A stretch of DNA of 64,000 nucleotides, taken from positions 1 to 64,000 of the IMG/VR virus record IMGVR_UViG_3300033075_001233. One strand, given 5' to 3'. The DNA comes from a virus (taxonomy: Duplodnaviria; Heunggongvirae; Uroviricota; Caudoviricetes). The notes beneath the pieces were generated by a model. It had not been told where the DNA came from. It saw nothing but the letters and a program-made list of their open reading frames with translations, and did not search any database. The translations under genes were made by a program, and so were the position numbers. Positions 17,332 through 44,497 of the stretch are shown here, in pieces (within the stretch, counting starts at the first letter, position 1; every line of letters starts with the position of its first letter).

Positions 17332-19922
17332 TAATCACACGAGCTAGTAGTGACGTTAATTTGGGGTATTCCTATCTTAATAACTACCCAGACCCATTTA
17401 AGAGCGAAGAAGAAAAGCTTACAAATGAATCATATATAAAGAATACACTGGATTACTTTGCTAATCTGGCCTACACTCAATATAAGCAGAATAAGGAAAC
17501 ATTTGTTAAGAATTATGACTTAATGAAGGGTATTATAAAACCTGAAGATTTCTATCAAGATAGCGGTACAGAAGTAAAGGATTTTATAGAAACCCTCAAA
17601 GCCTCAGAGTCACTTCCTTCATATGTTAAACACTATCCGATTATTAATCCTCCCGTAAATACAATGGTGGGAGAATTATCAAAACGTCCTGATATTCATA
17701 AAGTTAAGGCATTTGATGATGATAGTAGATCAGAAGAATTACAATATAAGACAGAAATAATTCAACAGGCAATTCTTCAGCAAGCCAGACAAACCATTCT
17801 TAATAGAATGGCAATCAGAGGCGAGGATTCAAATGACGTATCTGATGAGGATATGCAAAAAATGATTATAGAGAGTGTAAAAGATGAACTTACAGAATAC
17901 ACATCACTCGCTGAAAGGTGGGCCAATCATACCCTTACAGCTTTAAAAGCTCAATTTAATACAAAAGAGAAATCTGAAGATGCTTTCCGGGACCTACTCG
18001 TTTGTTCCAGAGAGTTTTATCATATATATGAAGATAATTCTAAATTAGGATTTAATGTAAAAACTGAAAATCCTAAGAATGTATGGTTTAAAGGTACTCC
18101 TGATAATAAGTATATGTCTGGATTATCTGGAGAGCCAAACGTACCGTATGCTATTGGTACTGTATATGTTAAGGAAATTTCAGAAATAATTGAAGAATTC
18201 CCAGATTTAACTGAAGAAGAGATTAAACACCTTCAGAAGTCTATGCAGAATTCTATATTTCTGGATGGCAGGGAATCTAATCTGTTTACAGATAAAACTG
18301 GTATTGATACGATTAAGTATGATACATACAATCGTTTGATTTATCAGGAAAGAATGATTCTTCAGGCTGAACTTGGTAATGAGTTTAGGGACGATCTTCA
18401 ACAATGGCTTGGTGCTAATAACGCATTCTCATTTGGTTATAAGTATGTGGTTATCAGGTCTTACTGGAATTCTAAGAAAAAAGTAGGTAAGCTTGAATAT
18501 TATGATGAAGATGGTGAACCACAAGTAACCCTTGTGGATGAAACATATAAAGAAGGTAGTCCCGGTGAAATTTCAATAGAATGGGGATGGGTGAACCAGT
18601 GGTATCAAGGTGTTAAAATTGGCCCTGATATTTATTTCATAAAACCATTCACATTATTTGATTATTCCCCCATCATAGGACTTATCCACGATGCTAAGAA
18701 TACTCTCCCTAAATCTCTGATTGATCTGATGAAGCCCTATCAGGTGCTTTATAATATTTGCATGAATCAGCTTTACGAACTCCTCGAAAAGGAAATTGGT
18801 AATGTGGGAGCTGTAAACCTCAGAAGAATTCCTCGTCCAAAAGATGGAGATACAAATGATGCTATAGATGTATGGGAAGATGAAGCTAGAACAAGGGGTA
18901 TTATATTTGATGATGACAGCCCTGAAAATACAAAAGGAGCTGTTCAAAATCAGACAATTGCAAGAAACGTAGACCTCACCAGAACTAATGAGATTCAATC
19001 TAGGTACAGCCTAGCCGTTCAATTAAAAAATGAGTGTTGGGAGCTTATTGGTATGAATCGTCAAAGGTTGGGTAGTCCACTAGCCACTGAGACGGCTACA
19101 GCTAATCAAAACGCTCTGGTTCAATCATTTGCACAAACAGAACCATACTTTGCTGCGCATGGATATGTACTTAACCAGCTTTATCAGGCAATCCTCGATG
19201 CTGCTCAATATATAGAATCTAAAAAACCTGTATCCACTGTAAACTATATTACCTCCCAAGGAGATAGTGCATTTGTTCAGGTGACAGGATCAGATATTCG
19301 TCTTAAAGACTTGAAGGTGTTTGTAACCTCCAAAGCTGAAGACCAGCAGTTATTTAATGAATTCCGTCAGCTCTCTCAAGCTATGCTTCAAAATGGTGCA
19401 TCTATATATGATGTATCCGTATTGTATTCTACAAATTCCATCAGGGAAATGCAGAAAGTATTTAAAGATTTGAAGAATAAGCAAGAAGAAATGATGGGTG
19501 CTGAACAACAGCAAAAACAACAAGAACTCCAACAGAATCAAGAAGTTGCAATGGCTACTCTTGAACAAGCAGAGCGTCATCACCAAGATAACATGAAGCT
19601 TGAAAAATATAAAGTGGATGTCAAAGCTAATACAGATTTGGCAAAAGCTGAAATTCAGACATTCTTCCAAGCTCCGGGTACAGATAGTGATGGAGATGGT
19701 ACGCCTGATATAATGGAAATAGCCAATCATCAACTTGATTTGCAGGATTCAATTGCTAAAAGGGATTTAGAAAATAAGAAGTTAGCCCTTGATTATCAAC
19801 AGTTTCAGGCTGATCAGAAAAATAAGAAAATAGAATTTGAGCAAAATATTCAGAAAATGAAAATTGATAGAGAAAAGATAAAAGCTCAAAAACAAAAAGC
19901 TAAACAAAAACCCAAAAAATAA
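17328..19922 (+). CDS. portal protein (putative), 864 aa, with coiled-coil/Q-rich and basic C-terminal extension
   Basis: Immediately downstream of terL with an ATGA overlap. Its size is typical of crAss-like and large podophage portals. C-terminus reads QQQKQQELQQNQE...KAQKQKAKQKPKK. Confidence 0.6.
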   Translation: MIITRASSDVNLGYSYLNNYPDPFKSEEEKLTNESYIKNTLDYFANLAYTQYKQNKETFVKNYDLMKGIIKPEDFYQDSGTEVKDFIETLKASESLPSYVKHYPIINPPVNTMVGELSKRPDIHKVKAFDDDSRSEELQYKTEIIQQAILQQARQTILNRMAIRGEDSNDVSDEDMQKMIIESVKDELTEYTSLAERWANHTLTALKAQFNTKEKSEDAFRDLLVCSREFYHIYEDNSKLGFNVKTENPKNVWFKGTPDNKYMSGLSGEPNVPYAIGTVYVKEISEIIEEFPDLTEEEIKHLQKSMQNSIFLDGRESNLFTDKTGIDTIKYDTYNRLIYQERMILQAELGNEFRDDLQQWLGANNAFSFGYKYVVIRSYWNSKKKVGKLEYYDEDGEPQVTLVDETYKEGSPGEISIEWGWVNQWYQGVKIGPDIYFIKPFTLFDYSPIIGLIHDAKNTLPKSLIDLMKPYQVLYNICMNQLYELLEKEIGNVGAVNLRRIPRPKDGDTNDAIDVWEDEARTRGIIFDDDSPENTKGAVQNQTIARNVDLTRTNEIQSRYSLAVQLKNECWELIGMNRQRLGSPLATETATANQNALVQSFAQTEPYFAAHGYVLNQLYQAILDAAQYIESKKPVSTVNYITSQGDSAFVQVTGSDIRLKDLKVFVTSKAEDQQLFNEFRQLSQAMLQNGASIYDVSVLYSTNSIREMQKVFKDLKNKQEEMMGAEQQQKQQELQQNQEVAMATLEQAERHHQDNMKLEKYKVDVKANTDLAKAEIQTFFQAPGTDSDGDGTPDIMEIANHQLDLQDSIAKRDLENKKLALDYQQFQADQKNKKIEFEQNIQKMKIDREKIKAQKQKAKQKPKK

Positions 19923-20467
19923 TGTTTGACGGACTAGGCGAATGGCTAAAAACAAAAATAGACACGTATTCTGATTATTTAAAATTCTGGGTGCTGGTAG
20001 AACACTTCGAGGAAGCCCTGATTTTAAGAAATGGTGTATATCATCGTACCCTGAAAAAAGGACTATGGCCAAAATTTCCAATTTTTGAATATTTCTATAC
20101 GGTGAGTATTAAACATGAAACTATAAATATACCACCTATCGCTGTAACCACCTCTGATGGCAGGACGGTGATAGCTGGTATAATGATAGAATATGAAATA
20201 GTGGATTCTAAATTATTCGTTTTGGAGAATAATGATTCTATTTCTAATGCAAAAGATATAGTGATGGGTAAACTATCTGATCTATTAGAAGATATCACTT
20301 TAGAAGAAATAGGTAAAAAAACCACAAAAAATAAACTAGAGAAATCAATCCGTCCAAAATTTGAAGAAATGGGAATGAAGATATTAGGTATTGATTTTAC
20401 CCATAAATATCAAACAACAGCGTATAATTTCCTCTCAGGAATGGATGGAAATAAGTTAATGCTATAA
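19922..20467 (+). CDS. hypothetical head-morphogenesis-region protein, 181 aa
   Basis: TAATG overlap with the portal stop. Confidence 0.5.
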   Translation: MFDGLGEWLKTKIDTYSDYLKFWVLVEHFEEALILRNGVYHRTLKKGLWPKFPIFEYFYTVSIKHETINIPPIAVTTSDGRTVIAGIMIEYEIVDSKLFVLENNDSISNAKDIVMGKLSDLLEDITLEEIGKKTTKNKLEKSIRPKFEEMGMKILGIDFTHKYQTTAYNFLSGMDGNKLML

Positions 20468-21855: not shown

Positions 21856-23415
21856 ATGGCTCAACAGTTTGTACCGGGATTTACTGGTTTATACGCAGGT
21901 AGAATATCCCAAATGGATAAACGTGCTATTGGTAAACTTACTGATAGTAACCACTTGGAGAGTTTCCATAGGGATACTCCTTCGGATTATGATAAGAAAA
22001 TCATATCCCTCTACACCCAAACGTCTTTGTATAAAAATGACTTCCTCCAGATGCTGGATAAGTCTACTCCTTACTATCTTGATGGTATGAGTGACACATG
22101 GCGTTGGGAAATAGAAAAACCCTATCAGTTCCCCCGTATTATAGATATCCCTCAATCCACCTTGGATCAAACATCCATCGGTATTGATGGTAAAGAGTTT
22201 GAAATCGTATTCGATACTAAAATTAGTAAGAATGCAATTATCAGCCTTGGTTCTAGGATTTATGGTCAGCAGTTCTTGCTTACTTCCGATCCTATTCCTT
22301 ATAATAGTGGTTGGTTGAACAGGGCAACCCTCGTATCTGATAATCCCACTGTGGATAGTGTAGATCGTAGCCGTTTTGTTCCCGGTGTTGATGTTGAAGT
22401 GATTAACGCATCTATTGGTGAGTTTGATCAAGACTTGCTTGGTCTGGATAGGCTGGCAGAACGCCTTGAAATGTTTGAAACCCTTGGTAGTGGTTATTCT
22501 AAAGAACACACCATTACTGGTTGGGCTGATGACAAACGTATCTCTAATGGTAAAAAAGACATCTGGGGTAATCCTCTGGATATCATATACTACGCAAATG
22601 TACGTAACGGTAAGATCGAATCTCGTTCTGATGTTAAGTGGGAACCCTTCATCGAGTTCTTGATGCGTAAAGAAATGTTGGAATTGAAAGTGAATCGTAT
22701 GTTCTTTGCTAAACCCGGATTTGCTCGTACAAATGGTGGTAAGCAAGAATTGAAGAAAATCTCAGCAGGTATCATCCACCGTATGCGTACCTCTGGTAAC
22801 TATGTTCCTTACAACCGTGGTGAATTCTCTGTAAACCTGTTACGTACAGTGTTTGGTGATCTGTTCTACCGCCGTGTAAATGTAGGCAAACGTAGGGTGA
22901 AACTCTACACCAATGAAGCAGGGTTTGACGCTTTCCAACAAGCTGTTAAAATTGATGCTCTGGCTTCTGGTCTTAACTTCACTGTTGGTGATAATGAAAA
23001 ATTCATCAAAGGTAGTGGTCAGAACCTCCGTTTGGATTATGCGTTCGATAGCTTTGTAACCCGTGAAACTGGTGTTGTTAGCTTGATTCACCTCACTGAG
23101 CTTGACCTTCCTCAAACTAACTTGGAGTTTGGTCAGAATAAAAAATCCACCCCAATATTCATCGTGTTTGACGTAAGCCCCACTTCCAGTGGTGATCTTA
23201 CCAATAACATCCGTGAGGTACGCCGTCAAGGTAGACCTAACATGACTTGGGGTTATATTGATGGTCGCCGTCACCACTTAGGGGCAATGGCTTCTCAAGG
23301 TCACTCTGCTGCTAATAAAATGGATGCCTATACAATCTTTATGGATGATCGTTGTGATGCCTTCATTGAAGACATGTCCCGCACCGTATTGATTGAAGAA
23401 CTGCCATTCTGGTAA
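21856..23415 (+). CDS. major capsid protein (putative, by position and size), 519 aa
   Basis: Follows the scaffold-like gene and is followed by a strongly structured intergenic region. No motif-level proof. Confidence 0.5.
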   Translation: MAQQFVPGFTGLYAGRISQMDKRAIGKLTDSNHLESFHRDTPSDYDKKIISLYTQTSLYKNDFLQMLDKSTPYYLDGMSDTWRWEIEKPYQFPRIIDIPQSTLDQTSIGIDGKEFEIVFDTKISKNAIISLGSRIYGQQFLLTSDPIPYNSGWLNRATLVSDNPTVDSVDRSRFVPGVDVEVINASIGEFDQDLLGLDRLAERLEMFETLGSGYSKEHTITGWADDKRISNGKKDIWGNPLDIIYYANVRNGKIESRSDVKWEPFIEFLMRKEMLELKVNRMFFAKPGFARTNGGKQELKKISAGIIHRMRTSGNYVPYNRGEFSVNLLRTVFGDLFYRRVNVGKRRVKLYTNEAGFDAFQQAVKIDALASGLNFTVGDNEKFIKGSGQNLRLDYAFDSFVTRETGVVSLIHLTELDLPQTNLEFGQNKKSTPIFIVFDVSPTSSGDLTNNIREVRRQGRPNMTWGYIDGRRHHLGAMASQGHSAANKMDAYTIFMDDRCDAFIEDMSRTVLIEELPFW

Positions 23416-23565: not shown

Positions 23566-24516
23566 ATGGGTAAGATAGTAAAAATCAATCCTATCAAGAA
23601 GGATTATCCTTCTAATTTTAAGACAATGGAAAGCTCTTTAGCATCTAAGGGTTATGTACGTAGCCCCGGAACTAAACGGTATCTGATGCCTAAAATGGAA
23701 GCAGATGGTAGATATAGAACAGGATTAGATGATAAAGCTCTTTATTTGAAAAATCTATCTGAAGAAGATAGGGCTGCTGAAATCGAATTTATCAAAGAAA
23801 CTTTGAAAAAATTAAAAGATTCATATCCTGATACAGATTTCGGGCCTCGTTCTAAAGTATGGAATGCATTCAGTGAGAGTCCTATAAAAGTTTCACATAT
23901 TACATTTGGTAATGAAACATTTATATTGAACGTAGATGAGTCTCTTGAAGATTTACTTACATACTGTTGGGTGAGAGTTCATCCTAGTGTAGCAAGGTCT
24001 GTGGAAGCTTTTCAACGTGGAGAATGTCCTGATTGTCAATATTATATGGCAAACGAAGAAGCTGAAAATAGGGCAGTATTTGCTAAGAAAAAACAAATAA
24101 ATAAAGCAATCTCTACCTTTGAATCTCTTAGTCCTACTAAGAAAAAACAAATTGGTCGCCTCATGGGTCTTCCAATTAGTGACGATAGTACAGACGAAGC
24201 GGTTTATAACATGATGGATAATACATTGAAGAAAGCTGAAATTGATGCTGGTGAATATAAAAATCTCCCTGCTCTTTCAATCTTCAACGAATTAGTAATA
24301 ATGACAGATGAACGCTTGAGAGTCAAAGACTTAATTGATCAAGCCATCCGATATAATGTTTACAGAAAAGGTGCGGGTGATGATATTAAAGAGGGTAATG
24401 AAGTGATTGCATCAGGTAAAGATTCTCTTGTTGATAGATTGTTAAAAGATGAAAATCAGCAAGAACTTATCGCTCTTGAAAGTAAACTTAAACAAAAGAA
24501 ATTTCAATACGCATAA
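23566..24516 (+). CDS. hypothetical structural-module protein, 316 aa
   Basis: Located after the capsid terminator. Confidence 0.5.
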   Translation: MGKIVKINPIKKDYPSNFKTMESSLASKGYVRSPGTKRYLMPKMEADGRYRTGLDDKALYLKNLSEEDRAAEIEFIKETLKKLKDSYPDTDFGPRSKVWNAFSESPIKVSHITFGNETFILNVDESLEDLLTYCWVRVHPSVARSVEAFQRGECPDCQYYMANEEAENRAVFAKKKQINKAISTFESLSPTKKKQIGRLMGLPISDDSTDEAVYNMMDNTLKKAEIDAGEYKNLPALSIFNELVIMTDERLRVKDLIDQAIRYNVYRKGAGDDIKEGNEVIASGKDSLVDRLLKDENQQELIALESKLKQKKFQYA

Positions 24517-25241
24517 TGATTTCCGCAGAGAGACTATCATATAAACTTGATCAAAGATTAAATAAACTCTCTACGAATGATCATCAGCAAATTCAGAGGG
24601 AAGATAAAGTATTAGCCTTAAATGAAGCTCAGATAAAGCTAATCAAACTAAAAGTGGATGGTAATAATGTACATAGGTTGGGATTAGATGGATTTAAGAA
24701 AAGATATCAAGATTTACAATTCTTGGTTGAAAATCCAGAAGATCATCCGCTCAATGTAACTTTGTCAGATAAATATCTAAACAAATATATTACTACTACT
24801 CCTATATCCCCAAGATTCATGTTCTATTTAGATAGCTACATGATTGCTGATAAAGGAAGTTGTAAAAATAGGGTGTTATATTCAAATGGTGATTTAATCA
24901 AACATGCAGATATTACACTTTTATTAAATAATGATAATTACAAACCATCTTTTGAATATCAGGAAATTCTGGTAGATATTTCTTCAGACGAACTTCATTA
25001 TTATACAGATGGTACGTTCACTCCTAAAAAAGTTTATTTATCTTATTTACGATATCCTATTGAAATTGACTTAGAAGGATATGTTAAATTTGATGGTACA
25101 GACTCAGTAACAGTTGATTGTGAACTTGAGGAATACTTAGAAGATGAACTTTTGGATTTAGCAGTACAGTCATTAGCAATGTATACAGAAAATAATTCTG
25201 CTGTAGTTTACGCAGAAAAAAGAATACAAAATAACGAATAA
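24516..25241 (+). CDS. hypothetical structural-module protein, 241 aa
   Basis: TAATG overlap with the previous gene. Confidence 0.5.
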   Translation: MISAERLSYKLDQRLNKLSTNDHQQIQREDKVLALNEAQIKLIKLKVDGNNVHRLGLDGFKKRYQDLQFLVENPEDHPLNVTLSDKYLNKYITTTPISPRFMFYLDSYMIADKGSCKNRVLYSNGDLIKHADITLLLNNDNYKPSFEYQEILVDISSDELHYYTDGTFTPKKVYLSYLRYPIEIDLEGYVKFDGTDSVTVDCELEEYLEDELLDLAVQSLAMYTENNSAVVYAEKRIQNNE

Positions 25242-25261
25242 CATAAAAATCAGAAAATAAT

Positions 25262-26398
25262 ATGGATTTTTCTTTAACAACCTTGTTTGTTGTACCCGTA
25301 GGTAACTCTCTTCCCACCGTTGGAAGTACAGAATCTTTAACTGCTGGCCAATTTGGTATCTTTAAAGATAGGGCTAGAACTGCCGCTACAGCAGGTAATA
25401 TTGGTAGTGCGTCCTTTATCCAATTCGGGCAAGGTCGTCCTACAAGCTATCTTGGTACAAAAGTATCAGACTATGTAAAAGCTTCTAAAGTTAAGAAGTG
25501 GTATAAGGTAACAGGTAGTGCTACAGCAGCTAATGAAATTTGGGAGTTTTCCGGTTTCTCAGCTAAATGCGATCAAGATGTAAGTCTTACATTGCGTGGC
25601 CACTCTCAATATCTTGATACAATTTCATATAATGGCTTTACTCGTTCTATTACAGTGAAAATGCCATGTTGTGATTGCGGTGATGATCCTTGTGTTGATG
25701 TAGCAAATGAAACAATTGTTGATTTGCTCATGGAGAAACTCAACCAAATTGATGCAGTACAGGATGGTCCCACTGCATTGAATCTCACCACATTCTGGAC
25801 TTTTACTAAAGTAGGTACTGGAGCAAATGCAAAAATTGTAGTTGAAAGCAAACCTATTACTAAATATGGTAAGTTCTGCGACATTGCATTGAACCCCTAC
25901 GAATATGACAGGATTTGGTTCCGTGGTTGGGTGTATGTTAATCCTGATACCACTGTAGACTTCTTGGTATATGATCGTTGTGAACAAGCTGCCACCGCAA
26001 CTCTTACCCAACGTAGTACATATCCTCGTGGTACTTCCGATCAGGTGTATCAAGAACAAATTAACTACTACAGTTACCAAAGTGCTTACAAACATTTATT
26101 CCGTCTTTCTCAATATAACCAGCAATTTGAAGATTTCGTAACTGATGGTACAGTGTACGATCAATATGTTCTTCAATTTGACGAAATGGAACAAGATGAT
26201 AGCTTTACAGCTAATCTTAAACAAGACGAGCGTGTAATCTTCTATGTACCACAATCTCTATCTGCTGGTTTTGAAGCAGTTGCAAATGTATATCTTGGAA
26301 CCCCTGTTAATGAATCTGGTGCTACAGTGACTACCACTACTACTACCACTTCGACAACTTCCACAACTACTACTACAACTACTACATTAGTTCCGTAA
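25262..26398 (+). CDS. structural protein with Cys motif and poly-Thr C-terminal tail (decoration or fiber-like)
   Basis: MPCCDCGDDPC motif. C-terminus TTTTTTSTTSTTTTTTTTLVP. Followed by a strong terminator. Confidence 0.5.
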   Translation: MDFSLTTLFVVPVGNSLPTVGSTESLTAGQFGIFKDRARTAATAGNIGSASFIQFGQGRPTSYLGTKVSDYVKASKVKKWYKVTGSATAANEIWEFSGFSAKCDQDVSLTLRGHSQYLDTISYNGFTRSITVKMPCCDCGDDPCVDVANETIVDLLMEKLNQIDAVQDGPTALNLTTFWTFTKVGTGANAKIVVESKPITKYGKFCDIALNPYEYDRIWFRGWVYVNPDTTVDFLVYDRCEQAATATLTQRSTYPRGTSDQVYQEQINYYSYQSAYKHLFRLSQYNQQFEDFVTDGTVYDQYVLQFDEMEQDDSFTANLKQDERVIFYVPQSLSAGFEAVANVYLGTPVNESGATVTTTTTTTSTTSTTTTTTTTLVP

Positions 26399-26419
26399 TA
26401 GAATTTCTTAAAAATACCG

Positions 26420-26462
26420 AAAAGGGAAGGGGAGTAATTGATTCTTCCTTTCCCTTTTTTCA
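26420..26462 (+). terminator. rho-independent terminator
   Basis: AAAGGGAAGGGG...CCTTTCCCTTTTTT: a GC stem followed by a T6 run. Confidence 0.55.
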
Positions 26463-26468
26463 TTTGAC

Positions 26469-26729
26469 ATGGCAGTAAAACAAAACATATTAAAAGGTTG
26501 GGCAACCACAATAATAGGCATTGCTACAATGTGTATTACTTTATTTCTTATATGGAATGGTACATTCGATTTCGTATGGGAAGGAATTGGTGGTTTAACA
26601 ATTGGTACAATTCTTTTACTTGTCCCAAAAAGTATTGAAAAAATAATCTTAGAAGCTATTCGTGCTTGGGGTAAAAAAGGTAATTCTTATGATAACTATA
26701 TACCCGAAGATAAAGGAGGAGATATATAA
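26469..26729 (+). CDS. holin-like small membrane protein, 86 aa
   Basis: Two TM segments (WATTIIGIATMCITLFLIW and GIGGLTIGTILLLVP) and a charged C-terminus. It lies directly upstream of the amidase. Confidence 0.5.
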   Translation: MAVKQNILKGWATTIIGIATMCITLFLIWNGTFDFVWEGIGGLTIGTILLLVPKSIEKIILEAIRAWGKKGNSYDNYIPEDKGGDI

Positions 26730-27283
26730 TGATTTTTATTAGCGCAGGACATAATAGTAAATCTCAAACAATTAAACAAGACCCCGGAGCCATGAATTCT
26801 CATGGACTTAAAGAGGGAGATGTCACTATTGAATTTAGAGATTTGGTAAGTTATGAACTTACATTAATGGATGTACCTCATAAAAAAGATAGTGATGAAG
26901 AATCTCTTCAACAATATGTAGATAGAATCCAAACTGGTACGGGTTCTGTAGTATGTGAATTTCATTTGGATGCTGCTAGTCCTGAAGCTACTGGTACAAC
27001 TACCCTTGTAGAAGTAGATGCTGATAGATTAGATATGGCTTGTGCTAAAGAAATTGTAAATATTACAGCTTCTATTCTTGGAATTGCAAATAGAGGAGTA
27101 AAATCTGAAGCAGATACTCGCCATAAAAGATTAGCACTGATGCGTGAGAATGGTGTAGTGGTACTTCATGAAATTTGTTTTATTACGAACGATAACGACA
27201 TGTTAAGGTATCAGGCGAAAAAGAAAGAGCTGGCAAAGGCCGTTGCTCAAATATTATTCAAATATGAACAAATCATTCCATAA
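26729..27283 (+). CDS. N-acetylmuramoyl-L-alanine amidase (Amidase_3/MurNAc-LAA), endolysin
   Basis: MIFISAGHNSK...DPGA matches the IDAGHGG..DPGA motif. EFHLDAASPEATG matches SIHANA...G. RGVKSEADTRHKRLALMRENGVVVLHEICFITND matches RGVK...VLR....AVLVELGFISN. Confidence 0.8.
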   Translation: MIFISAGHNSKSQTIKQDPGAMNSHGLKEGDVTIEFRDLVSYELTLMDVPHKKDSDEESLQQYVDRIQTGTGSVVCEFHLDAASPEATGTTTLVEVDADRLDMACAKEIVNITASILGIANRGVKSEADTRHKRLALMRENGVVVLHEICFITNDNDMLRYQAKKKELAKAVAQILFKYEQIIP

Positions 27284-27822
27284 TGGCAGCACCTACTCCT
27301 GAGTTAAATATAACAATATTTGATAGCCACGATAGACGGCTATTAGTTATAGGGGATTCGAGCTACTACCCTACTGGATGGAATATTGTTACTCCCACAT
27401 TGGCGATTACAATTCCCGGATATCCAGAAAAACAAATAGAATTTGATGCTCAGAATATAAATATATTCAATTCAAATGCTTTAGGTATAACATGTGATGT
27501 GGATAATTGCGATCTTGAAAATTTACCTGATGGTATTTATAAAATTAAATACGCAATCTATCCATCCTATAAATATAATATAACAAAAACATTCTTACGT
27601 GTTGATTCATTATATGCTAAATTTGATGAAGTTTTCTTAAATTTAGAATTATTTGAATGTGATGGACAAATAAAAAGAAACCAAAGGATGCAATTAGATG
27701 AAATTGAATTTTATATTCAAGGGGCTATTGCAGCAGGAAATAGATGTGCTACAAAATTAGCCAAAGAACTATACGATAAAGCATCCTTACTTTTAAATAG
27801 ATTAACAAAAAGTTGTAAATAA
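27283..27822 (+). CDS. hypothetical Cys-containing protein, 179 aa
   Basis: TAATG overlap with the amidase stop. Confidence 0.5.
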   Translation: MAAPTPELNITIFDSHDRRLLVIGDSSYYPTGWNIVTPTLAITIPGYPEKQIEFDAQNINIFNSNALGITCDVDNCDLENLPDGIYKIKYAIYPSYKYNITKTFLRVDSLYAKFDEVFLNLELFECDGQIKRNQRMQLDEIEFYIQGAIAAGNRCATKLAKELYDKASLLLNRLTKSCK

Positions 27823-27920
27823 TGGGATGTCAAGCTTCTAAATGTGTGCAATGTGGTACGCCCAAAAAAGCGTGTCAGCTTGTTGATGGAAAATGTTCAA
27901 ACTGTAGAGCTAAGAAATAA
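27822..27920 (+). CDS. Cys-rich zinc-ribbon-like microprotein, 32 aa, not in the ORF track
   Basis: Hand translation: MGCQASKCVQCGTPKKACQLVDGKCSNCRAKK, with 7 Cys. TAATG overlaps at both its start and its stop with the neighbouring genes. Confidence 0.4.
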   Translation: MGCQASKCVQCGTPKKACQLVDGKCSNCRAKK

Positions 27921-28273
27921 TGCAAATACCTCAATTTAAAGAATGTACTTCCTGTGGAACATTGCAGGAATTATATAATAAAATTAATTGTTCTATATAC
28001 CAACTCATTAGAAACAAATGGGTAGGGCACACCTATAATGTAGATGAATTTTTTGATGCTGGTATGTATAAAGCCCTTTTACGTCTTAAACGAATTGTAT
28101 ATAAGAGGTTATATAATCCAGATTATCCTAATGAGTGTTTTGATACACAAGATATTATATCAAAACTTACAAAAATAATGTATAAATCATCATCTTGCCC
28201 AGATTGTCCATGTGAAGATTTATCATATTTAGTGCCCACAACTACTACCACAACAACAACCATAGCTCCTTAA
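27920..28273 (+). CDS. hypothetical protein ending in CPDCPCED plus a poly-Thr tail, 117 aa
   Basis: C-terminus SSSCPDCPCEDLSYLVPTTTTTTTTIAP. Confidence 0.5.
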   Translation: MQIPQFKECTSCGTLQELYNKINCSIYQLIRNKWVGHTYNVDEFFDAGMYKALLRLKRIVYKRLYNPDYPNECFDTQDIISKLTKIMYKSSSCPDCPCEDLSYLVPTTTTTTTTIAP

Positions 28274-28282
28274 ATTTATAAT

Positions 28283-29332
28283 ATGCCTTGTACAGATTGT
28301 TTTGAAAATTGTTTTGATAAAAGAACCACTGATAGATGTGTCCAATATACAGGTGATGATATTCCTTTGTTAGGTATATGTAATGGAGATTCATTATATC
28401 AGGTGGAAGTAATAATTCTGGAAAAACTTCAAGAAGCACTCGATGGTACAGGTATTGTACTTTCTGATGTCACTCTTGAAAACTGTCCTGAATTACTTAC
28501 ATTATTTGGTACTCAGGAAAAAACACTGGTAAATCTTCTGCAAATGTTGATTGATTATCAGTGTACATTAAAGTCTTTAATTGATGCACTTACACCATCA
28601 CCTGTATCTTTTGATACAGCATGTTTAACTGGACTTCCTACAAATCCCACTGCCACTGATATTCTCCAAGCTGCTGTAACTAAATTATGTAGTGTTTCTA
28701 CAGATGTTGCTACAATAAAAGCTGATTATGTTAAATCATCTCAGCTTTGTTCAATGGTAACAGCTTGCTTATCAGGTAGTTCTTCTACACAAGAATATAC
28801 AAAAATGCCAAAATATGTCCCTATGGCATATCTTGGGCCTCTTTCTGTATTTGATGCTACAGGTAAGGGATTAAGTGCTTCTGGATATGATAAAGTGTAT
28901 ATATGTAATGGTAATAATGGTACACAAGACCTTAGAGGTAGAACTCTGGTAGGTGCAAATACAAACGTAGTAGGACCAACATTAGGAACAGCCGTTGATC
29001 CTGCTCAACCTCAGAATGCAGGATATAATTTTGCACAAAATACACAAAAAGGTGCATATACAGATACTCTGACAACTAATACAATTCCTTCTCACTCTCA
29101 CACTGTAACTGATCCGGGCCATAGACACGAAGTAGATTTAACACATGGTTATGGATATACAGGAACACCAAACAGTTCTGTGTTTGGAAATGGTGCAAAT
29201 TCACCAGCTTCTTATTCATATAATTCAGATGTGAATACAACAGGTATCACTGTTAATTCTACAGGTGCTGGACAACCTCACAACAATACACAACCTTCTC
29301 ATGGTGTTGTTTGGATAATGTATATTCCCTAA
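28283..29332 (+). CDS. tail fiber protein with phage tail-collar domain
   Basis: IPSHSHTVTDPGHRHEV and the C-terminal NTQPSHGVVWIMYIP resemble the tail-collar (Mdp-like) H-x-H motifs and the terminal QPY..NYII box. N-terminus MPCTDC. Confidence 0.65.
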   Translation: MPCTDCFENCFDKRTTDRCVQYTGDDIPLLGICNGDSLYQVEVIILEKLQEALDGTGIVLSDVTLENCPELLTLFGTQEKTLVNLLQMLIDYQCTLKSLIDALTPSPVSFDTACLTGLPTNPTATDILQAAVTKLCSVSTDVATIKADYVKSSQLCSMVTACLSGSSSTQEYTKMPKYVPMAYLGPLSVFDATGKGLSASGYDKVYICNGNNGTQDLRGRTLVGANTNVVGPTLGTAVDPAQPQNAGYNFAQNTQKGAYTDTLTTNTIPSHSHTVTDPGHRHEVDLTHGYGYTGTPNSSVFGNGANSPASYSYNSDVNTTGITVNSTGAGQPHNNTQPSHGVVWIMYIP

Positions 29333-29353
29333 TAAAAATCAATAAATATAATT

Positions 29354-31255
29354 ATGTCTTGTCAAGATTGCAATAATTCGAGTATCTCATTAACAGGAAG
29401 TTGGTATCCGGGCAGTCCCTGCTCAGAAAACACTGAATGTGGAGGTACTTCATATAATGCTCAATGTGTCTACTATAATGGGCCAAATTTACCATGCTCA
29501 GGAGTAAATACATTAGATAGTTTAGAATATGCTCTTCAGAAAATAGATGAGCAAATTTGTGCTATTTCTGGAGATTATAGTACATATAATATGAATTGTT
29601 TGAATACATGGTATGGTTCAACAATTTCTACACAAGCTGAATTTGTAGATGCTATAACAGGGTATGCTTGTGCAATTGCTACAAATTTATCAACATTTAT
29701 AAATACCACTTATACTGCCAATCAAGCAACATTAGATGATAGAATTTCATCATTAGAACTTCCTGATATCACTTGTGTATCTGCCTCAGTAACAGATGCT
29801 GATGATTTACAGACAGTGCTGGCTAAATATTGTTCAAAATTTGAAGATATTGATGATAAGTTAAGTATATCTGGAATTACATGGAATTCCTGTCTTACAG
29901 TGGTAGGAACACCCACCACTATAGCTCAAGGTTTTCAATTACTTGCAGATCAGATTTGTGATGTTTATGACTTAGTAGGTGCTGGAGGTATTCTTCCTAC
30001 ATTCAACAACTCTCTTTCCTGTATATCTGGTACATCAAACGATACTCTTGTAGAGACAATAGAACTTATAAAAACAAGACTTTGTGAAACTCCCACTTAT
30101 GATTTTAGCCTCATATCATGGGGATGTTGGGGCACACAACCTGCTAGTTTTCAAGAATTTATAGCTAAAACTGTAAGTTATTTGAATTCATTAAATTCGG
30201 TTAAATACCAATTTGATAATTCTGACTTTACACTTACAGCAGTAGACCCAATGAATCCTTGTGATGGTCAAGTAGTATCTTTAGCCACGCCTCTTAATGT
30301 AGATAGATTTGTAGCATCGAATGCTTCTGATTTATCACCATCTACACTTGTTGATAAATTAACATCAGTAGGAAGTATATCTCTTGATGATAGTTCAAAT
30401 ACAGATATATCAATTGATGTGACCGATAAAGATTACGGTGACATCACTGTTACAGGATCAGGAAATACATGGACTATTGATAATGACGCAGTTACATTTG
30501 CAAAAATGCAAAATATTAGTACATCTACTCTATTAGGTAGAAGTACAGCAGGAACAGGGGATGTAGAACAAGTTAGTATTGGAGGTAACTTAGTATTATC
30601 TGGCGGTGTTTTATCTGTACCCGGAAAAACCCTTATAGGTGTCACTAAATTCTCATCAAGTGGTACTTGGACAAAACCTGCAAACTGTACTGCTGTACTT
30701 ACATATGTAGTAGCAGCAGGTGGTGGTGGGGCTGGTGCTCTATCAGATGCAGCAGAATCTGCTGTAGGATCAGGTGGTGGAGCAGGTGGTTATAGTATAA
30801 ATTATATTACTACAGGGCTAGGTTCTACTGAGACAGTCGTAGTGGGTATAGGTGGTGATCCCGGTAATCTTGGTAACAGTTGGGCAGGTCAACCCGGAAC
30901 AAATAGTTCATTTGGTAGCCACGTAACTGCGTATGGTGGATTAGGGGGTGAAACTCTTGCATCTGGTACATCTATAGCAAAAGCAGATGGCGGTTTAGGA
31001 GGTGCTCCATCTATTTCATCTGGAACCACTATAATTACCAGCTCAGGTGAATGTGGTAATGAAGCAATTAGATTTTCAGCATCCGTTGGAACATTTGCAA
31101 AAGGAGGTTCTTCAATATTTGGTAGTTCATATAATGGAGGCGTTACAGGGATAGGTGCTGGTGGATATGGAAATGTTGAATATAATGCAGTATCTGGTGG
31201 AGCAGAGGGATATGAAGGTGGAGATGGATATGTAATTGTCTATGAATATAGTTAA
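29354..31255 (+). CDS. tail fiber or receptor-binding protein with Gly-rich C-terminal repeats, 633 aa
   Basis: N-terminus MSCQDC. C-terminal GGGGAGALSDAAESAVGSGGGAGGYS...GIGGDPGNLGNSWAGQPG...GGLGGAPS is beta-helix or fiber-like low complexity. Confidence 0.6.
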   Translation: MSCQDCNNSSISLTGSWYPGSPCSENTECGGTSYNAQCVYYNGPNLPCSGVNTLDSLEYALQKIDEQICAISGDYSTYNMNCLNTWYGSTISTQAEFVDAITGYACAIATNLSTFINTTYTANQATLDDRISSLELPDITCVSASVTDADDLQTVLAKYCSKFEDIDDKLSISGITWNSCLTVVGTPTTIAQGFQLLADQICDVYDLVGAGGILPTFNNSLSCISGTSNDTLVETIELIKTRLCETPTYDFSLISWGCWGTQPASFQEFIAKTVSYLNSLNSVKYQFDNSDFTLTAVDPMNPCDGQVVSLATPLNVDRFVASNASDLSPSTLVDKLTSVGSISLDDSSNTDISIDVTDKDYGDITVTGSGNTWTIDNDAVTFAKMQNISTSTLLGRSTAGTGDVEQVSIGGNLVLSGGVLSVPGKTLIGVTKFSSSGTWTKPANCTAVLTYVVAAGGGGAGALSDAAESAVGSGGGAGGYSINYITTGLGSTETVVVGIGGDPGNLGNSWAGQPGTNSSFGSHVTAYGGLGGETLASGTSIAKADGGLGGAPSISSGTTIITSSGECGNEAIRFSASVGTFAKGGSSIFGSSYNGGVTGIGAGGYGNVEYNAVSGGAEGYEGGDGYVIVYEYS

Positions 31256-31285
31256 TAGATAGGATTTTATTGGTTTTTCCTATCG

Positions 31286-31318
31286 AGAAGGGCTTGAAAT
31301 ATAGCCCTTTTTTTATAA
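31286..31318 (+). terminator. rho-independent terminator after the fiber genes
   Basis: GAAGGGCT-tgaaatat-AGCCCTT followed by TTTTTT. Confidence 0.6.
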
Positions 31319-31499
31319 TTTACAATATTATTAAATAATTTCAAAAATTATGTTAAAATATTTGGCAGTATCAAATATTATATTTAGCTTTGTGTCTTAT
31401 TATTGGGGTAATTATAAGTATCATTCAGAGCTAAAATTTAATTTGATTCTTTCAAATAAAAATACTATCTTTGTGAGAGATTTCCATCTCTGTGAAAGA

Positions 31500-31558
31500 C
31501 CAAGCCTCGGTATGATACTCGATAACCCCAATAATCGAAATCCGAGGCTTTTTTTATT
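31500..31558 (+). terminator. second rho-independent terminator
   Basis: AAGCCTCGG...(31 nt)...CCGAGGCTT followed by TTTTTTT. Confidence 0.55.
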
Positions 31559-31883
31559 TTTATAAAGCCAACGAAACCACACGGAGTTTTCCGTATCACC
31601 TCTGAAAGGTAACTCAAGGTAGGAGGTCAGAAGTCGGGTTGAAATTGTCCCCGATAGTGGTGAAAACATTCCATTGTACGAACACGTACAGTTTGAATTC
31701 TGAGGGTTAAAATGTAGGAATTCTGGGTAGGTGAGACGATCATCATCGGCACTGGCTGTACATAAGTTTTGGAATAAAACCTCTCTAAAGGGCCATAGTG
31801 TGTCTTGTTGAAAATAAATTTGGAAAATTCAATTTTTTTACTTACCTTTGCCTTCATAAATATTTTTTTATTAAAACAAAAAT

Positions 31884-33116
31884 ATGGCAGAAAATACTAA
31901 AGACAAAACATTAACTCAGTTGGAAGATTTACTTAAACATAAAAAAAGTAAGTCTTATTATGCATCCAAACTGAATATATCAGTGGAAGAAGTTAATGAT
32001 GTGTTAAGAGAACTAAGACAAACAGGAGCATACTACGTACATGCTACTGATTATGTAGTACCTTCATTTACCGTAACATATTCATCATCAGTTGATTGTG
32101 ACAAAGGAACGAAGAAATCAGAAGTGATTTCAGATTTTGAACCAAAAACCATAGAAGAATTAGTAGAATTACATAAGGTGGATACAGACAGATATAAAGT
32201 GAGTAATTACTGGACAAAGCAAAAAGGAGACAAATTCTACTCTAGTTTGCTTTGTTCGCTTATAAAGCCCACTGAACTTGATATTGAAAGATTTGCAGAA
32301 TATGTAAAGTCATATAAATCAGACTTTAAACCAGTAAATGTCACCTTTGCTGGTGGTGATAAGGTGGACATTGAAATTTCAATTGCAGACTTTCACCTTG
32401 ATAAGCTCACTCTGGATAAAGAGAAAATAGAAGAAAGGGTAAAAAGATATGAAGAAATTGTAAATAGTTTAGTTTCTTCAGTAGATAGAGTGTATCAGAT
32501 AAATAAAATAGTGTATGTCATAGGTAATGACTTCTTTCATACAGATAACTATTCCAACTCTACAACCAACCTTACACCCCAAGATGTAGCAGTAAGTTAC
32601 AACGAAGCCTATGAAATAGGATTTGATCTGATGGTGAGGACAATCTCTCAACTTAGAGCATATTGTTCAGAAATGGATGTTATCTTAATTCAGGGTAATC
32701 ATGATAGAACAAAATCTTACTATCTTGCTCATGCACTTGAGGTATATTTTAAAGCAGATAAACACATTAAATTTGATAGAGAGCATTCTGTAACAAAATA
32801 TATAAAATTAGGAAATACATTTATTGGCTACCATCATGGTAATACAAAAATTGATGATCTTCCTCTTTTATTCGCCACTTCTCCTGATTCATGTGTAGAT
32901 TTTGGTACATCCAAATACAGAGAAGTGCACACTGGAGATAAACACTTTTATATGGCAAAAGACATAAAAGGAGTAAGAGTTCAACAACTCCCATCCCTTT
33001 CAGGTGTAGATAGATGGCATCTTGATAATAACTATGTAAATAGTGTACGAGCAGCAATTGTTACAGTGTATCATCCTGAAGAAGGAAAAATTGCAGAATT
33101 TGAAAAACGAGTATAA
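31884..33116 (+). CDS. calcineurin-like metallophosphoesterase (SbcD/Mre11-like nuclease fold)
   Basis: Motifs IADFHLD (D-x-H), VIGNDFFHTDN, LIQGNHDRT (GNHD), IGYHHGN and HTGDKH, in the order expected for the Mre11/SbcD phosphoesterase family. Confidence 0.7.
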   Translation: MAENTKDKTLTQLEDLLKHKKSKSYYASKLNISVEEVNDVLRELRQTGAYYVHATDYVVPSFTVTYSSSVDCDKGTKKSEVISDFEPKTIEELVELHKVDTDRYKVSNYWTKQKGDKFYSSLLCSLIKPTELDIERFAEYVKSYKSDFKPVNVTFAGGDKVDIEISIADFHLDKLTLDKEKIEERVKRYEEIVNSLVSSVDRVYQINKIVYVIGNDFFHTDNYSNSTTNLTPQDVAVSYNEAYEIGFDLMVRTISQLRAYCSEMDVILIQGNHDRTKSYYLAHALEVYFKADKHIKFDREHSVTKYIKLGNTFIGYHHGNTKIDDLPLLFATSPDSCVDFGTSKYREVHTGDKHFYMAKDIKGVRVQQLPSLSGVDRWHLDNNYVNSVRAAIVTVYHPEEGKIAEFEKRV

Positions 33117-33817
33117 TGACATATAGAAATATAGTTTCTGATATAAGAGGTATGAATAAATTATTATCATCCGATGGTTTAATAAATGATCGTGTGATAA
33201 TGAATGAAGTACGTAGTGCTGCCAACATGATTGTTGGTCAAGCTCTACAGAAACGTAAATATTGGCAAAGTCCTACATTATTTACACCTATTCTCTGCTT
33301 AGATATGGAACAAGTTCCCCTTCGTGAGTGTTGTGAATACACTGGAGATAAATATGTTGCAATTTCCAAGAAATCTCTTCCTAAAGTAGGAGAGGGTATT
33401 TTTGGATTAGCAGTGCAAGGAGTATTTGGACTTGATTGGTCTGTTAAATTCAAACCTACAAATCCTAATAGATATAGTAATTTATTAAAACTTAAAGTTC
33501 CGAACTCAGAGTCTTATTTCTGGATCACTCAAGATGGCAGGGTGGTAGTTACAAATGAAGATACAAAACAAATTGATGTATTTGCATATTTTACAGAACC
33601 TGTACCAAATGATTTGCTTTATCCCGGAAAGGACTGTGATTGTAAAGTGAAGCCATCAATAACAAATTTATGTACAAATCCATTAGATCAGAGATTTCCA
33701 TTTATTGAAGAACGTATTTTTGATTTAAAACAAATGGTGTATAAAAATCTATTATCTACATATTTTAATCTACCTTACGATAAAACATCAAACCAATTAG
33801 ATGAAACGAGCAAATAA
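33116..33817 (+). CDS. hypothetical protein, 233 aa
   Basis: TAATG overlap with the upstream stop. Confidence 0.5.
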   Translation: MTYRNIVSDIRGMNKLLSSDGLINDRVIMNEVRSAANMIVGQALQKRKYWQSPTLFTPILCLDMEQVPLRECCEYTGDKYVAISKKSLPKVGEGIFGLAVQGVFGLDWSVKFKPTNPNRYSNLLKLKVPNSESYFWITQDGRVVVTNEDTKQIDVFAYFTEPVPNDLLYPGKDCDCKVKPSITNLCTNPLDQRFPFIEERIFDLKQMVYKNLLSTYFNLPYDKTSNQLDETSK

Positions 33818-39100: not shown

Positions 39101-40899
39101 GAACAAATATGTTTCCAAATAACAGTGATGTTTTCTATAATTTTCTTGGAAATGTAGGTTATCCTAAATATTGGTTTAGTACAGACATTAGGCGTGGTAG
39201 TTTCTTTGGTTTATTTGGTGTAAAAGATACAGCCTTTGATTGTAAAGAAAATAAGTTTTTCTACGATTCAGGTAAAATTTATCTTTTTTCCTATGGTATT
39301 CCATATTATTTTTGTGAATCAGAAGTAAATGTAGATTTAAGACAAGCATATAACGATAAAGAGGGAGATTTCTTCCCTAGGGTGTCATCTGATATTCCTG
39401 ATGATTGGTTGCAAGAGACATATGTTACGATTAAGAATGATAATACTTATTACTACAACAAAACATATTCAAAACAAAATAAAGAAAATTATTTTTCACA
39501 CCTACCGAATAGCTGGACAGGAGACGAATGTACTACAAATTATCCGTATAGGGCTATATTTTCTGAGCAGATAAGTGATAATAAAAGAAGTTTGAATAAG
39601 AGTGCTTGGAAGATATTTAAACCTTCTGCTAGATTTGATTTTCCTCAGAATTATGGAAAACTCATATCTCTGGATGGTATTGAAAATAGACAGGTGCTTG
39701 CAAGATTTGAGCAAAAAAGCCTGCTTTATAATGCAATGCTTACTGCCCCCACCTCTGCTGCAAATGTATATTTAGGCCAAAGCTTATTCAATCAGCAGGT
39801 TCCCCCTCTTGATTATGCAGATGTTGATCTTGGATATATGGGTAGCCAGCATAAGTTCCTACTTAAAACAGAGTATGGACATGTTAGCGCAGATGCTAAA
39901 CGAGGTCAGATATTCCTTATAAATGGTCAACAAACAAAGGATATTACAAATAATAATGCATCAAAATTCTTTACAGAATTCTTAGATTTCCAAATAAAGA
40001 AGAGTTTCCCAGATATAGATATAGATAATCACTTCAAAGGAATAGGACTACATGGTGTATTTGATAGTAAATATAATAGATTAATAATCACTAAGTTAGA
40101 TTATAAACCTATAAAAGGAGTCACTTATGAAAATGGAGTATTTAAATATGGCGGAGTAGAGGTACAACTAACAGATACAGATTATTTCTGTAATTATTCA
40201 TTTACAGCTAGTTATGATTTCGATAATCAGGCATGGATAAGTTTACATACATATATTCCAAATTACTATGTAGGTGACGCTAATTACTTCTATTCTGGGA
40301 TTAATGGTGCTATAAGTAGTATATGGGAACATAATACAGCAATAAATAAATTTAATAATTTCTACGGTGAGATTCATCCATATATAATTGAATATCCTTA
40401 TGCATATGGTCCAAACGATCAGATATTACAGAACATAAAGGATTACTCCAGAGTATATCAATACACGGATTTTCGTGAATTTGTAGAAACAGATGACTAT
40501 TATTTTAATAAATTGATCGCTTATTCTACACAACAATGTAGTGGGATATTGAATTTATTCAAAAAACCAGCTAATAATTTAAAAGAATATAGCACATATC
40601 CTAAATATAACACTGATAGTAAAGACATTACATTTACAAAATCGAATAGTTTCTATCAGATTAATACATTCTGGGATATGGTGAAATCTGTTAAATCACC
40701 AATATGGACAAAATCTTGTGAAAACATATCCATATATAAAGAACTGAATCAATCTAATTTAGACTATTCTAAACGTAGCTTTAAAAAAGCCCCACTTAGA
40801 AGTAAAGAATTGAAACTCAGATTGATATTAGATAATAGAGATGATATAAAAATCATATCATCATTCATAATTTCTCCAACAATGCAATCTTATAAATAA
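36127..40899 (+). CDS. large virion structural protein, 1590 aa (tail or vertex-associated, putative)
   Basis: Very large ORF in the structural module, upstream of the lytic-transglycosylase protein. No diagnostic motif. Confidence 0.55.
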   Translation: MADQESSNISPNTKQAYIGLNLNSVSSQIKNGELSWALNAVVENFDGNEVSYQNEQANILCSNFPSGYTVIGKLNIIEDNIKIFWLANESTGQSEIGKIVDCEYSTVINPDCLNLDVNHPILKSVYRKNECGEIEIYWVDGYNRTRYINLSQLPYKVEEGTVVCEDVITTEIDCNKLNLQPNFKIPQLDIIDVNSDGELEAGTYQFAVQYADAEGNPYTSFYSVTNPLPIFDPTKITQNFNYKVGKSIVIDISNIDRTGLYEFINLAVIKTVNNISTPELVGTYDITNGEIKITYTGQNKTGIQLSMEDIFLKYEIYDTADDITTAQDTLILKGLTTNERISYQSIANQIKLYWQTWRIPQDRYKDELVATYLKGYMGDEVYPYEIAFLIENGVETDGFHIPGRTAIPSDLVPVSNDDVVDTDAEVCEPQNTTLPYWQVYNTASLLGYEQVYLDFLNGIRYADCPNPKVCGVIDIDPTDPACYSGPFQYGEFAYWESTDTYPCNDIYGELSGKPIRFHKFPDSTIAHIHDNQGFIYPKGLKIDVNQIVQLINNSDLTPEQKSQIKGFKILRGNRANNKSIVAKGLLYNVGKYRKDNKGYYYPNYPFNDLREDPFITVNSNYVEPNDSNGQSGTSNCFEYEISTALGPVTAQYTNCETGQVEYVPVQTGLPVTICSSTLPFFTAGGVGVITQKSYCSSGDEPSDVVEGKAQLKGFETDDSKQRYTFHSPDTHFYQPYIGNILKLETAEYGKAESHFTEVKNHAKYKFLSDTAVSVALLTAVGIGFASNTFGVSTNVFNGTAAYTSFQIMLDIMEKLIPNKNFTYQQTALGEYKQYKIVQNNTGNKQRKIDLGVYLQPGMVNIGDENTINNYQRESSVYLRTTKTLPYVSDVPGVAEDNTRYTLSQVDKCSSPSDISEVDISAYYSSIKKNIPNQYGQLYSYETIDTGFQFTLDLTQSYPNGWYSVFGGDVFINRFALKRKYPFFIDNRVSPERTNMFPNNSDVFYNFLGNVGYPKYWFSTDIRRGSFFGLFGVKDTAFDCKENKFFYDSGKIYLFSYGIPYYFCESEVNVDLRQAYNDKEGDFFPRVSSDIPDDWLQETYVTIKNDNTYYYNKTYSKQNKENYFSHLPNSWTGDECTTNYPYRAIFSEQISDNKRSLNKSAWKIFKPSARFDFPQNYGKLISLDGIENRQVLARFEQKSLLYNAMLTAPTSAANVYLGQSLFNQQVPPLDYADVDLGYMGSQHKFLLKTEYGHVSADAKRGQIFLINGQQTKDITNNNASKFFTEFLDFQIKKSFPDIDIDNHFKGIGLHGVFDSKYNRLIITKLDYKPIKGVTYENGVFKYGGVEVQLTDTDYFCNYSFTASYDFDNQAWISLHTYIPNYYVGDANYFYSGINGAISSIWEHNTAINKFNNFYGEIHPYIIEYPYAYGPNDQILQNIKDYSRVYQYTDFREFVETDDYYFNKLIAYSTQQCSGILNLFKKPANNLKEYSTYPKYNTDSKDITFTKSNSFYQINTFWDMVKSVKSPIWTKSCENISIYKELNQSNLDYSKRSFKKAPLRSKELKLRLILDNRDDIKIISSFIISPTMQSYK

Positions 40900-44444: not shown

Positions 44445-44497
44445 ATTTGGAAATCTCATAATCATTTCATAAATTTGCAACACTCAAAATATTAATA

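Follow-up and report, generated by a model that had tools for sequence, protein, structure and literature searches.

The question raised by this stretch of DNA, 64,000 nucleotides from an uncultured tailed phage (positions 1 to 64,000 of IMG/VR record IMGVR_UViG_3300033075_001233, referred to here as the window), is what role is played by a run of adjacent genes at positions 25262–31255 whose products are rich in cysteine and two of which end in long runs of threonine. An earlier note on the sequence had interpreted five of these genes as a single receptor-binding module held together by a shared C-x-D-C motif and poly-Thr linkers, with a lysis pair embedded within it. The Cys motifs, both poly-Thr runs and the pair of holin-like and Amidase_3 genes are all present where they had been reported, but the five genes do not form one receptor-binding module. 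The interpretation put forward here, which we consider reasonably probable, is that the region is a crAss-type block of capsid-surface, tail-hub and tail-fibre genes, which carries an enlarged set of conserved Cys sites and in which the fibres share a common N-terminal anchor domain.

The window belongs to an uncultured crAss-like podophage of a large, unannotated, environmental lineage. Its major capsid protein (MCP) of 519 amino acids (aa) matches Pfam Crass_capsid (6.6e-23) and the PHROG major head protein, and a megablast comparison of the region with 50,697 phage records gave no match. The only cultured phage with a match to this MCP was Leptolyngbya phage Lbo-JY46, with 25% identity by tblastn. 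The product of gene 25262 (378 aa) has more than 2,500 relatives, counted as clusters at 90% identity, many of which lie on contigs of ~120 kb, and among these neither a functional name nor a Pfam domain was found. Comparisons of the locus were based on 80 loci kept from at least 590 related IMG/VR loci. Cys residues and motifs were tabulated for 37 open reading frames (ORFs) of the window, amounting to ~15,000 aa, and 20,000 residue shuffles were conducted within six proteins of the module.

To our knowledge, the only virion of the Crassviruses to have been solved is that of Bacteroides phage crAss001 (Kehishuvirus primarius). The order of genes in the window is MCP, gp33-like, ring protein, capsid auxiliary protein (AUX), an insert, tail-hub A-like, microprotein, tail-hub B-like, fibre 1, fibre 2, a nuclease-like gene and ring protein 2. 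The order in crAss001 is MCP, gp33, gp34/35, gp36, gp37, gp38 (tail-hub protein A, THA), gp39 (tail-hub protein B, THB) and gp40 (ring protein R2) (Bayfield et al. 2023, PMC10172136). As the gene identities of the window fall in the crAss001 order, the two blocks are colinear from the MCP through ring protein 2, and both have a mobile insert after AUX, this being the lysis pair in the window and a homing endonuclease, at the same junction, in crAss001. The two phages differ in that sequence identity is ~12% or undetectable, in that the fibre genes of the window come directly after the hub genes, and in the presence of a microprotein gene between the hub genes, where crAss001 has no gene. The features of the block are as follows.

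21856 to 23415, plus strand: major capsid protein, with 1 Cys in 519 aa (Pfam Crass_capsid, PHROG).
23566 to 24516, plus strand: crAss001 gp33 homologue (hhalign against the gp33 family, probability 77%, E 2e-5).
24516 to 25241, plus strand: tail-barrel ring protein of crAss001 gp34/gp35 type (R3/R4) (hhalign probability 95%, E 2.8e-8, 212 columns).
25262 to 26398, plus strand: AUX of crAss001 gp36 type, 378 aa, with a fold match to crAss001 gp36.
26419 to 26466, plus strand: intrinsic-terminator-like hairpin just past the AUX gene, 16 bp and GC-rich with a T-tract (minimum free energy -22.2 kcal/mol, z = -3.3).
26469 to 26729, plus strand: holin-like small membrane protein, 86 aa, lineage-specific, with two hydrophobic spans.
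26729 to 27283, plus strand: single-domain Amidase_3 endolysin, 184 aa (Pfam 1.5e-15, 58.1 bits against a cut-off of 27).
27283 to 27822, plus strand: probable tail-hub protein A, fibre-docking, of crAss001 gp38 type (synteny and a weak profile match).
27822 to 27920, plus strand: zinc-ribbon-like microprotein, 32 aa with 6 Cys (Cys pattern and position).
27920 to 28273, plus strand: possible tail-hub protein B, in gp39 position and of gp39 size (synteny and size).
28283 to 29332, plus strand: tail fibre 1, 349 aa, starting MPCTDC.
29354 to 31255, plus strand: tail fibre 2, 633 aa, starting MSCQDC.
31285 to 31312, plus strand: terminator-like hairpin closing the fibre genes (10-bp stem and T-tract).
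33116 to 33817, plus strand: tail ring protein 2 (Pfam CrAss_Ring_2, 4.9e-14).

Gene 25262, which had been taken as the first of the receptor-binding genes, is identified by its predicted fold as a capsid auxiliary protein and not a receptor-binding protein. Its AlphaFold2 model, with a predicted local distance difference test score (pLDDT) of 78 and a predicted TM-score of 0.70, was matched by Foldseek to chain 7qof_a (E 4.7e-11, probability 1.0, TM-score 0.42–0.46), which at 333 aa has the length of crAss001 gp36, and the second match was a crAss001 unique-vertex chain. The model matches the two-domain AUX fold (PH-like and FliD-like) of PDB 7QOF, and the gene comes after the MCP and ring-protein genes, as is the case for crAss001 gp36. 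The match to the sequence profile of the gp36 family was weak (hhalign E 0.026), and the profile of the window's AUX family had no match among PDB sequences. The Cys cluster of this protein, MPCCDCGDDPC at aa 135–145 (PCCDCGDDPC, nucleotides (nt) 25667–25693), includes C136, C139 and C144, which along with C206 and C240 are found in at least 97% of homologues. The window AUX thus has five invariant Cys together with a poly-Thr tail, whereas that of crAss001 has a single Cys and no tail.

The genes that are indeed fibre genes are 28283 and 29354. Fibre 1 consists of a Cys-rich anchor (aa 1–60, nt 28283–28462), a helical shaft with conserved Cys and a C-terminal tail-collar domain resembling that of T4 gp10/gp12. 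It matches PHROG tail fibre (2.5e-16), a tail-collar protein of BFVD (6.9e-27) and, in PDB profile searches, tail fibre 9qgo (0.0034) and gp10 (2fkk), and residues H271, H273, H280 and H282 of its collar HxH motifs are at least 90% conserved. Its AlphaFold2 model had a pLDDT of 83, and a Foldseek search with it against PDB was uninformative, a monomer model of an elongated trimer being a poor query. Fibre 2 has an anchor at aa 1–75 (nt 29354–29578), a Cys-bearing helical shaft, DUF5907 and a Gly-rich C-terminal domain (Pfam Gly_rich_2).

The N-termini of the two fibres are homologous, as they match each other by BLASTP (E 3e-5) and a hidden Markov model built from the first 60 residues of fibre 1 homologues matches fibre 2 (E 1e-4). 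The core of this anchor domain is a Cys-rich leader followed by C-V-x-Y-T-G-x-x-L-P-x-x-G-I-x-T-G-D-x-L...QKID. Four Cys of fibre 1 (C3, C6, C10 and C19) do not vary in either of two homologue alignments, of 42 and 76 sequences, the N-terminus of the crAss001 fibre gp22 having no Cys. No counterpart of the domain was found by Pfam scan or by a PDB sequence profile search, and a search with its profile returned only short unannotated proteins. Modular fibres in which a conserved N-terminal anchor carries exchangeable distal domains are known from T7-like gp17 and the branched tailspikes of Ackermannviridae. The window is like these sets in having one N-terminal docking domain with differing distal receptor-binding parts, and unlike them in that the anchor is a previously unannotated Cys-rich domain that is commonly followed by poly-Thr/Ser linkers. 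The shared anchor fits a common docking function, so that the docking module proposed earlier is retained for the two fibres, though not for five genes. The fibre genes downstream are also the most variable part of the locus, which agrees with the suggestion of a host-range hot spot.

Genes 27283 and 27920 probably belong to the tail hub. In crAss001 the fibres dock on a hub made of a THA2:THB trimer, in which residues 1–26 of the trimeric fibre are held, and the tail barrel and hubs were seen by electron cryo-microscopy to be stabilised by disulfide bonds (PMC10172136). The product of 27283, which is probably tail-hub protein A, aligns with the gp38 family in its ECD and C-terminal F.KNNC..C.C.G motifs. 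The hhalign scores against that family were E 7.4e-4 (probability 26%) and E 1.9e-3 (probability 14%), with negative controls at 0.23–0.49. It also matches a PHROG virion structural protein (6.6e-5), and its gene sits between AUX and hub B/ring protein 2, as does crAss001 gp38. Its conserved Cys are 126, 155 and 178, and its relatives end in a C-terminal CxC, a likeness to crAss001, where THA also has a C-terminal C-x-C and with 11 Cys (5.1%) is the most Cys-rich of the structural proteins compared. Gene 27920 is possibly that of tail-hub protein B on account of its position and size, its product having 117 aa (core of ~87 aa) against 114 aa for crAss001 THB, with the microprotein gene intervening after hub A. 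Residues C9, C12 and C24 at its N-terminus are conserved family-wide. Profile searches against PDB sequences returned nothing for either hub-like protein.

The microprotein between them had been described as having seven Cys, but the actual count is six. It has two CxxC knuckles (C8xxC11 and C25xxC28) 13 residues apart and a basic tail. The pattern CxxC-x5-CxC-x6-CxxC occurs at the same position in 77/78 related loci and a public assembly includes the microprotein among its gene calls. Its similarity to Pfam Zn_ribbon_RanBP is weak and sub-threshold (17 bits, cut-off 27). It may be an additional part of the hub, or else an assembly factor. Genes 27920, 28283 and 29354 lie in one frame, as would be expected by chance in ~1 of 9 cases, and their expression by read-through or fusion was rejected, since both downstream genes start with a Met and an anchor domain of their own.

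A similar arrangement is found in Lbo-JY46 (PP438436), in which terminase, portal and MCP genes are followed further on by AUX-like and hub A-like genes, a gene for a small CxxC protein and then the fibres. Three consecutive proteins of this phage begin with the same Cys-rich anchor domain and its ...EKID... helix. Lbo-JY46 differs from the window in its AUX-position protein (17299–19194), which is 631 aa long, contains 15 Cys and lacks a poly-Thr tail. No publication on Lbo-JY46 turned up in the library searched. Its structural genes in the block are annotated as hypothetical, except for one 'tail fiber protein', and could be named by synteny.

The Cys motifs of the block are not a matter of chance. 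Of the residues in the module proteins 3.3% are Cys, against ~0.2% in the proteins encoded from portal to MCP. All five occurrences of C-x-D-C in the 37 tabulated ORFs fall within 23566–31255, one of which (CPDC, gene 23566, aa 154) had previously been missed. In the six module proteins four were observed where 0.12 were expected, a number reached in 0/20,000 shuffles, while C-x-x-C was observed seven times against 2.4 expected (P = 0.005, shuffles). A chance origin of the motifs was ruled out by these shuffles together with the conservation of the sites. Downstream, three giant proteins contain 2 Cys in 6,347 aa. Their ORFs (1,181, 828 and 4,338 aa; 40899–60000) have no Pfam match and correspond by position to the cargo and virion RNA polymerase proteins of crAss001; the giant proteins are presumed to be ejected, and their near lack of Cys fits proteins that have to unfold for ejection.

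Conservation of the Cys motifs in homologues holds for AUX, the THA-like protein, the microprotein, the N-terminus of the THB-like protein and the fibre N-termini. It does not hold for the Asp of C-x-D-C, most fibre homologues reading CSNC, for CPDCPC at the C-terminus of the 27920 product (in 11% of homologues) or for CPDC of gene 23566 (Cys 154 and 157, in 5% of homologues). The Cys clusters are therefore separate sites, each conserved in its own right, and are not copies of one C-x-D-C module.

The manner in which the variable Cys residues come and go points to disulfide partners, as these would be expected to be gained and lost in pairs. In AUX, Cys 103 and 137 are both present in 154 sequences, single in 1 and both absent in 20; the corresponding counts are 45, 2 and 128 for Cys 86 and 355, and 30, 0 and 145 for two Cys located in an insertion. 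In the fibres the counts are 76, 0 and 86 for Cys 156 and 162, and 14, 0 and 148 for Cys 29 and 50. Given this paired variation, the precedent of crAss001 and the scarcity of Cys in the proteins presumed to be ejected, disulfides are favoured for most sites. The disulfide or metal role suggested in the earlier note is a plausible one. For the two-knuckle microprotein, and perhaps the fibre tip (CxxC-x3-C-x8-C), the binding of metal is favoured in place of disulfides. In the arrangement envisaged, the conserved sites, most of which lie at chain termini, would be carried by proteins of the particle exterior. By analogy with crAss001, the chain ends of the two hub proteins, the microprotein and the fibres would meet at the tail hub, and disulfide cross-links would form once the particle leaves the reducing cytoplasm. 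With a common anchor on both fibres, different distal receptor-binding domains could be mounted on one hub, and fibre genes would on that account be exchangeable.

With regard to threonine, both runs of the window are terminal. That of AUX occupies nt 26330–26395 and the protein, whose C-terminal end is TTTTTTTSTTSTTTTTTTTLVP, closes with LVP. The tail is present in 77/80 loci at a median length of 22 residues, 18 of them Thr or Ser, and ends in L-[IVT]-P in 142 of 175 homologue sequences. In the 27920 product, a C-terminal extension specific to the subclade carries CPDCPC (within CPDCPCED, aa 93–100), then the poly-Thr run (nt 28238–28261) and then IAP, the protein ending VPTTTTTTTTIAP. In four relatives (L001, L003, L005 and L039) this run is followed by a further domain that is absent in the window. 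The Thr codons are a mixture of ACT, ACC and ACA, because of which the runs are not simple slippage tracts and an origin as slippage-prone repeats was ruled out.

In relatives, Thr/Ser runs are commonly interdomain linkers after an anchor domain of ~70 aa, and many of their fibre and anchor ORFs terminate in a poly-Thr run closed by hydrophobic-x-Pro; such poly-Thr-ending ORFs often precede, 10–20 nt on, an ORF starting 'MTVLITLT.AG.DTGPFNLYSD'. The idea of Thr linkers is thus borne out in the relatives but not in the window, where neither run links anything. Poly-Thr runs may be extended hydrophilic segments of linker type used after such domains, that of AUX being a C-terminal tail of fixed length, ~22 residues. 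In six of the related loci (L008, L034, L053, L061, L064 and L072) fibre 1 is followed by small proteins made up of anchor and poly-Thr and then by 'MTVLITLT.AG.DTGPFNLYSD' ORFs, and the fibre genes in these loci appear to be split exactly at the Thr linkers.

The lysis pair is likewise not an integral part of the block. An insert separates AUX from the hub A-like gene in only 4/80 relatives. The amidase, a PHROG endolysin match (8e-31), occurs in that slot in the window and in L001 only, while L002 (10770–11261) and L035 (14624–15106) carry a Peptidase_M15_4 gene there, a case of one lysin being replaced by a non-orthologous one at a single junction. The holin-like protein has hydrophobic spans at ~aa 10–30 and 35–53 (two 19-residue windows with Kyte-Doolittle values above 1.5) and a C-terminus rich in K, E and D. 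It matched no holin family and no homologue of it was found in the 80 related loci. A strong hairpin follows AUX at the same place in 12/12 relatives listed, and hairpin plus T-tract was found in 32/54 unique relatives with a conservative pattern. Its position is conserved while its sequence differs between lineages, and it is probably a terminator or attenuator at the end of the highly expressed capsid genes. Judged by the distribution of these genes, the pair is an ordinary and mobile lysis cassette occupying a hot spot for insertions, limited to a few close relatives, and not a part of the virion module. It would have been inserted recently, just downstream of the terminator dividing the capsid genes from those of the hub and fibres.

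A number of points weigh against the crAss-type reading with disulfide-stitched sites. The five invariant Cys of AUX are an odd number, from which it follows that at least one of them must be free, intermolecular or a metal ligand. As crAss001 AUX has one Cys and the crAss001 fibre N-terminus none, the AUX and fibre-tip sites are without a solved counterpart. The assignment of hub A comes from synteny and a weak profile match (E ~1e-3, probability 14–26%), and hub B showed no sequence signal with gp39 (hhalign E 0.19–0.38). Shared ancestry is a confounder for the pairwise pattern of Cys gain and loss, which would be compatible with paired metal ligands too. One alternative is that the Cys clusters are mainly metal sites, binding Zn, or Fe-S as in tail-tip proteins of the lambda gpL type, with terminal knuckles that fold in the cytoplasm and serve to insert the fibres into the hub. 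In its favour, the cytoplasm in which phage particles are assembled is reducing and proteins of ~30 aa usually need metal for folding there, the spacings of the microprotein and the fibre tip are knuckle-like, the former with its weak Zn-ribbon match, and the conserved HxH of the fibre C-terminal domain is typical of metal-binding fibre tips. Nevertheless, disulfides are what the solved relative has, gain and loss of the variable Cys strictly involves twos and not fours, and, with the exception of D17 in the fibre, the clusters have no conserved His or Asp ligands next to them. The five invariant Cys of AUX count against metal as well, and as a general explanation we regard it as rather unlikely. 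Five adjacent receptor-binding proteins sharing one Cys-x-Asp-Cys docking or adhesin module with O-glycosylated Thr linkers, as first proposed, would account for the over-representation of C-x-D-C and its confinement to the block, and for the Thr/Ser linkers common in fibre genes of the family. The common N-terminal module of the two fibres survives from it within the crAss-type reading. The five-gene version is refuted by the capsid fold of 25262, which is unrelated to that of the fibres, and by the lack of conservation of Cys (CPDCPC of 27920, CPDC of 23566) and Asp, the latter usually being Asn or Ser in homologues. The Thr runs of the window link nothing, and no glycosyltransferase was seen among the window ORFs scanned (64 kb of the 122-kb genome). 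The proposal as a whole is very improbable.

Two further alternatives concern single elements of the block. The terminal poly-Thr tails might be a virion-surface device in their own right, of ~22 residues closed by hydrophobic-x-Pro, acting as a threonine bristle or glycan coat or as a tethered docking peptide for the next-encoded protein. By analogy with the T=9 capsid of crAss001 there would be roughly 500 copies of AUX per particle, and capsid glycosylation in mycobacteriophages such as Che8 provides, as reported in the citing article, a precedent for a sugar-modified capsid surface (Freeman et al. 2023, cited in PMC11256854). The Thr-rich tail of the window capsid protein may, like Che8 capsids, be a substrate for modification, but Che8-type mycobacteriophages encode glycosyltransferases, of which none was seen among the window ORFs scanned. 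We consider the proposal doubtful; if true, it would represent capsid and fibre decoration of a kind not described for tailed phages. The other alternative is that the amidase is a virion-associated lysin of the tail machinery that is used at entry and is not an endolysin. Its gene lies among structural genes and overlaps both neighbours by 1 nt, which would couple it translationally to the hub A-like gene. Yet it consists of the catalytic domain and nothing else, lacking any structural or anchoring part, it is preceded by the holin-like membrane protein, it is absent from 78/80 loci, two relatives have an unrelated M15 peptidase in the same slot, and the lysis genes of crAss001 are likewise embedded in the structural block. 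An entry function for the amidase is thus extremely improbable.

Several other genes were recorded in and around the block. Between the fibres and ring protein 2 lies a gene for a 410-aa protein (31884–33116) with a match to PHROG 'DNA repair exonuclease' (2.8e-54), which is kept in 49/80 loci. It is preceded by an AT-rich stretch of 630 bp (31256–31883) after the fibre terminator, with several promoter-like hexamers and no convincing ORF. A gene situated after the portal gene and before the 419-aa gene preceding the MCP (19922–20467) codes for an SPFH/Band 7 domain protein (Pfam 2.6e-12). The minus strand encodes, at 1926–2252, a small protein whose MIB_HERC2-like domain scored just under the Pfam cut-off (1.5e-07).

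Crassviruses are among the most abundant phages known. Three 'hypothetical' genes, those of the gp33-like protein, the ring protein and AUX, can be given functions from fold or profile matches, and the hub-like pair and the microprotein can be given provisional ones. If the reading favoured here is correct, the 'cysteine-stitched exterior' would be carried further in this environmental sister group than in crAss001, to the capsid AUX, a Zn-ribbon-like microprotein and a common fibre anchor. That anchor would represent a defined plug-in point for host-range swapping, and it follows as a prediction that the particles would be sensitive to reductants or chelators.

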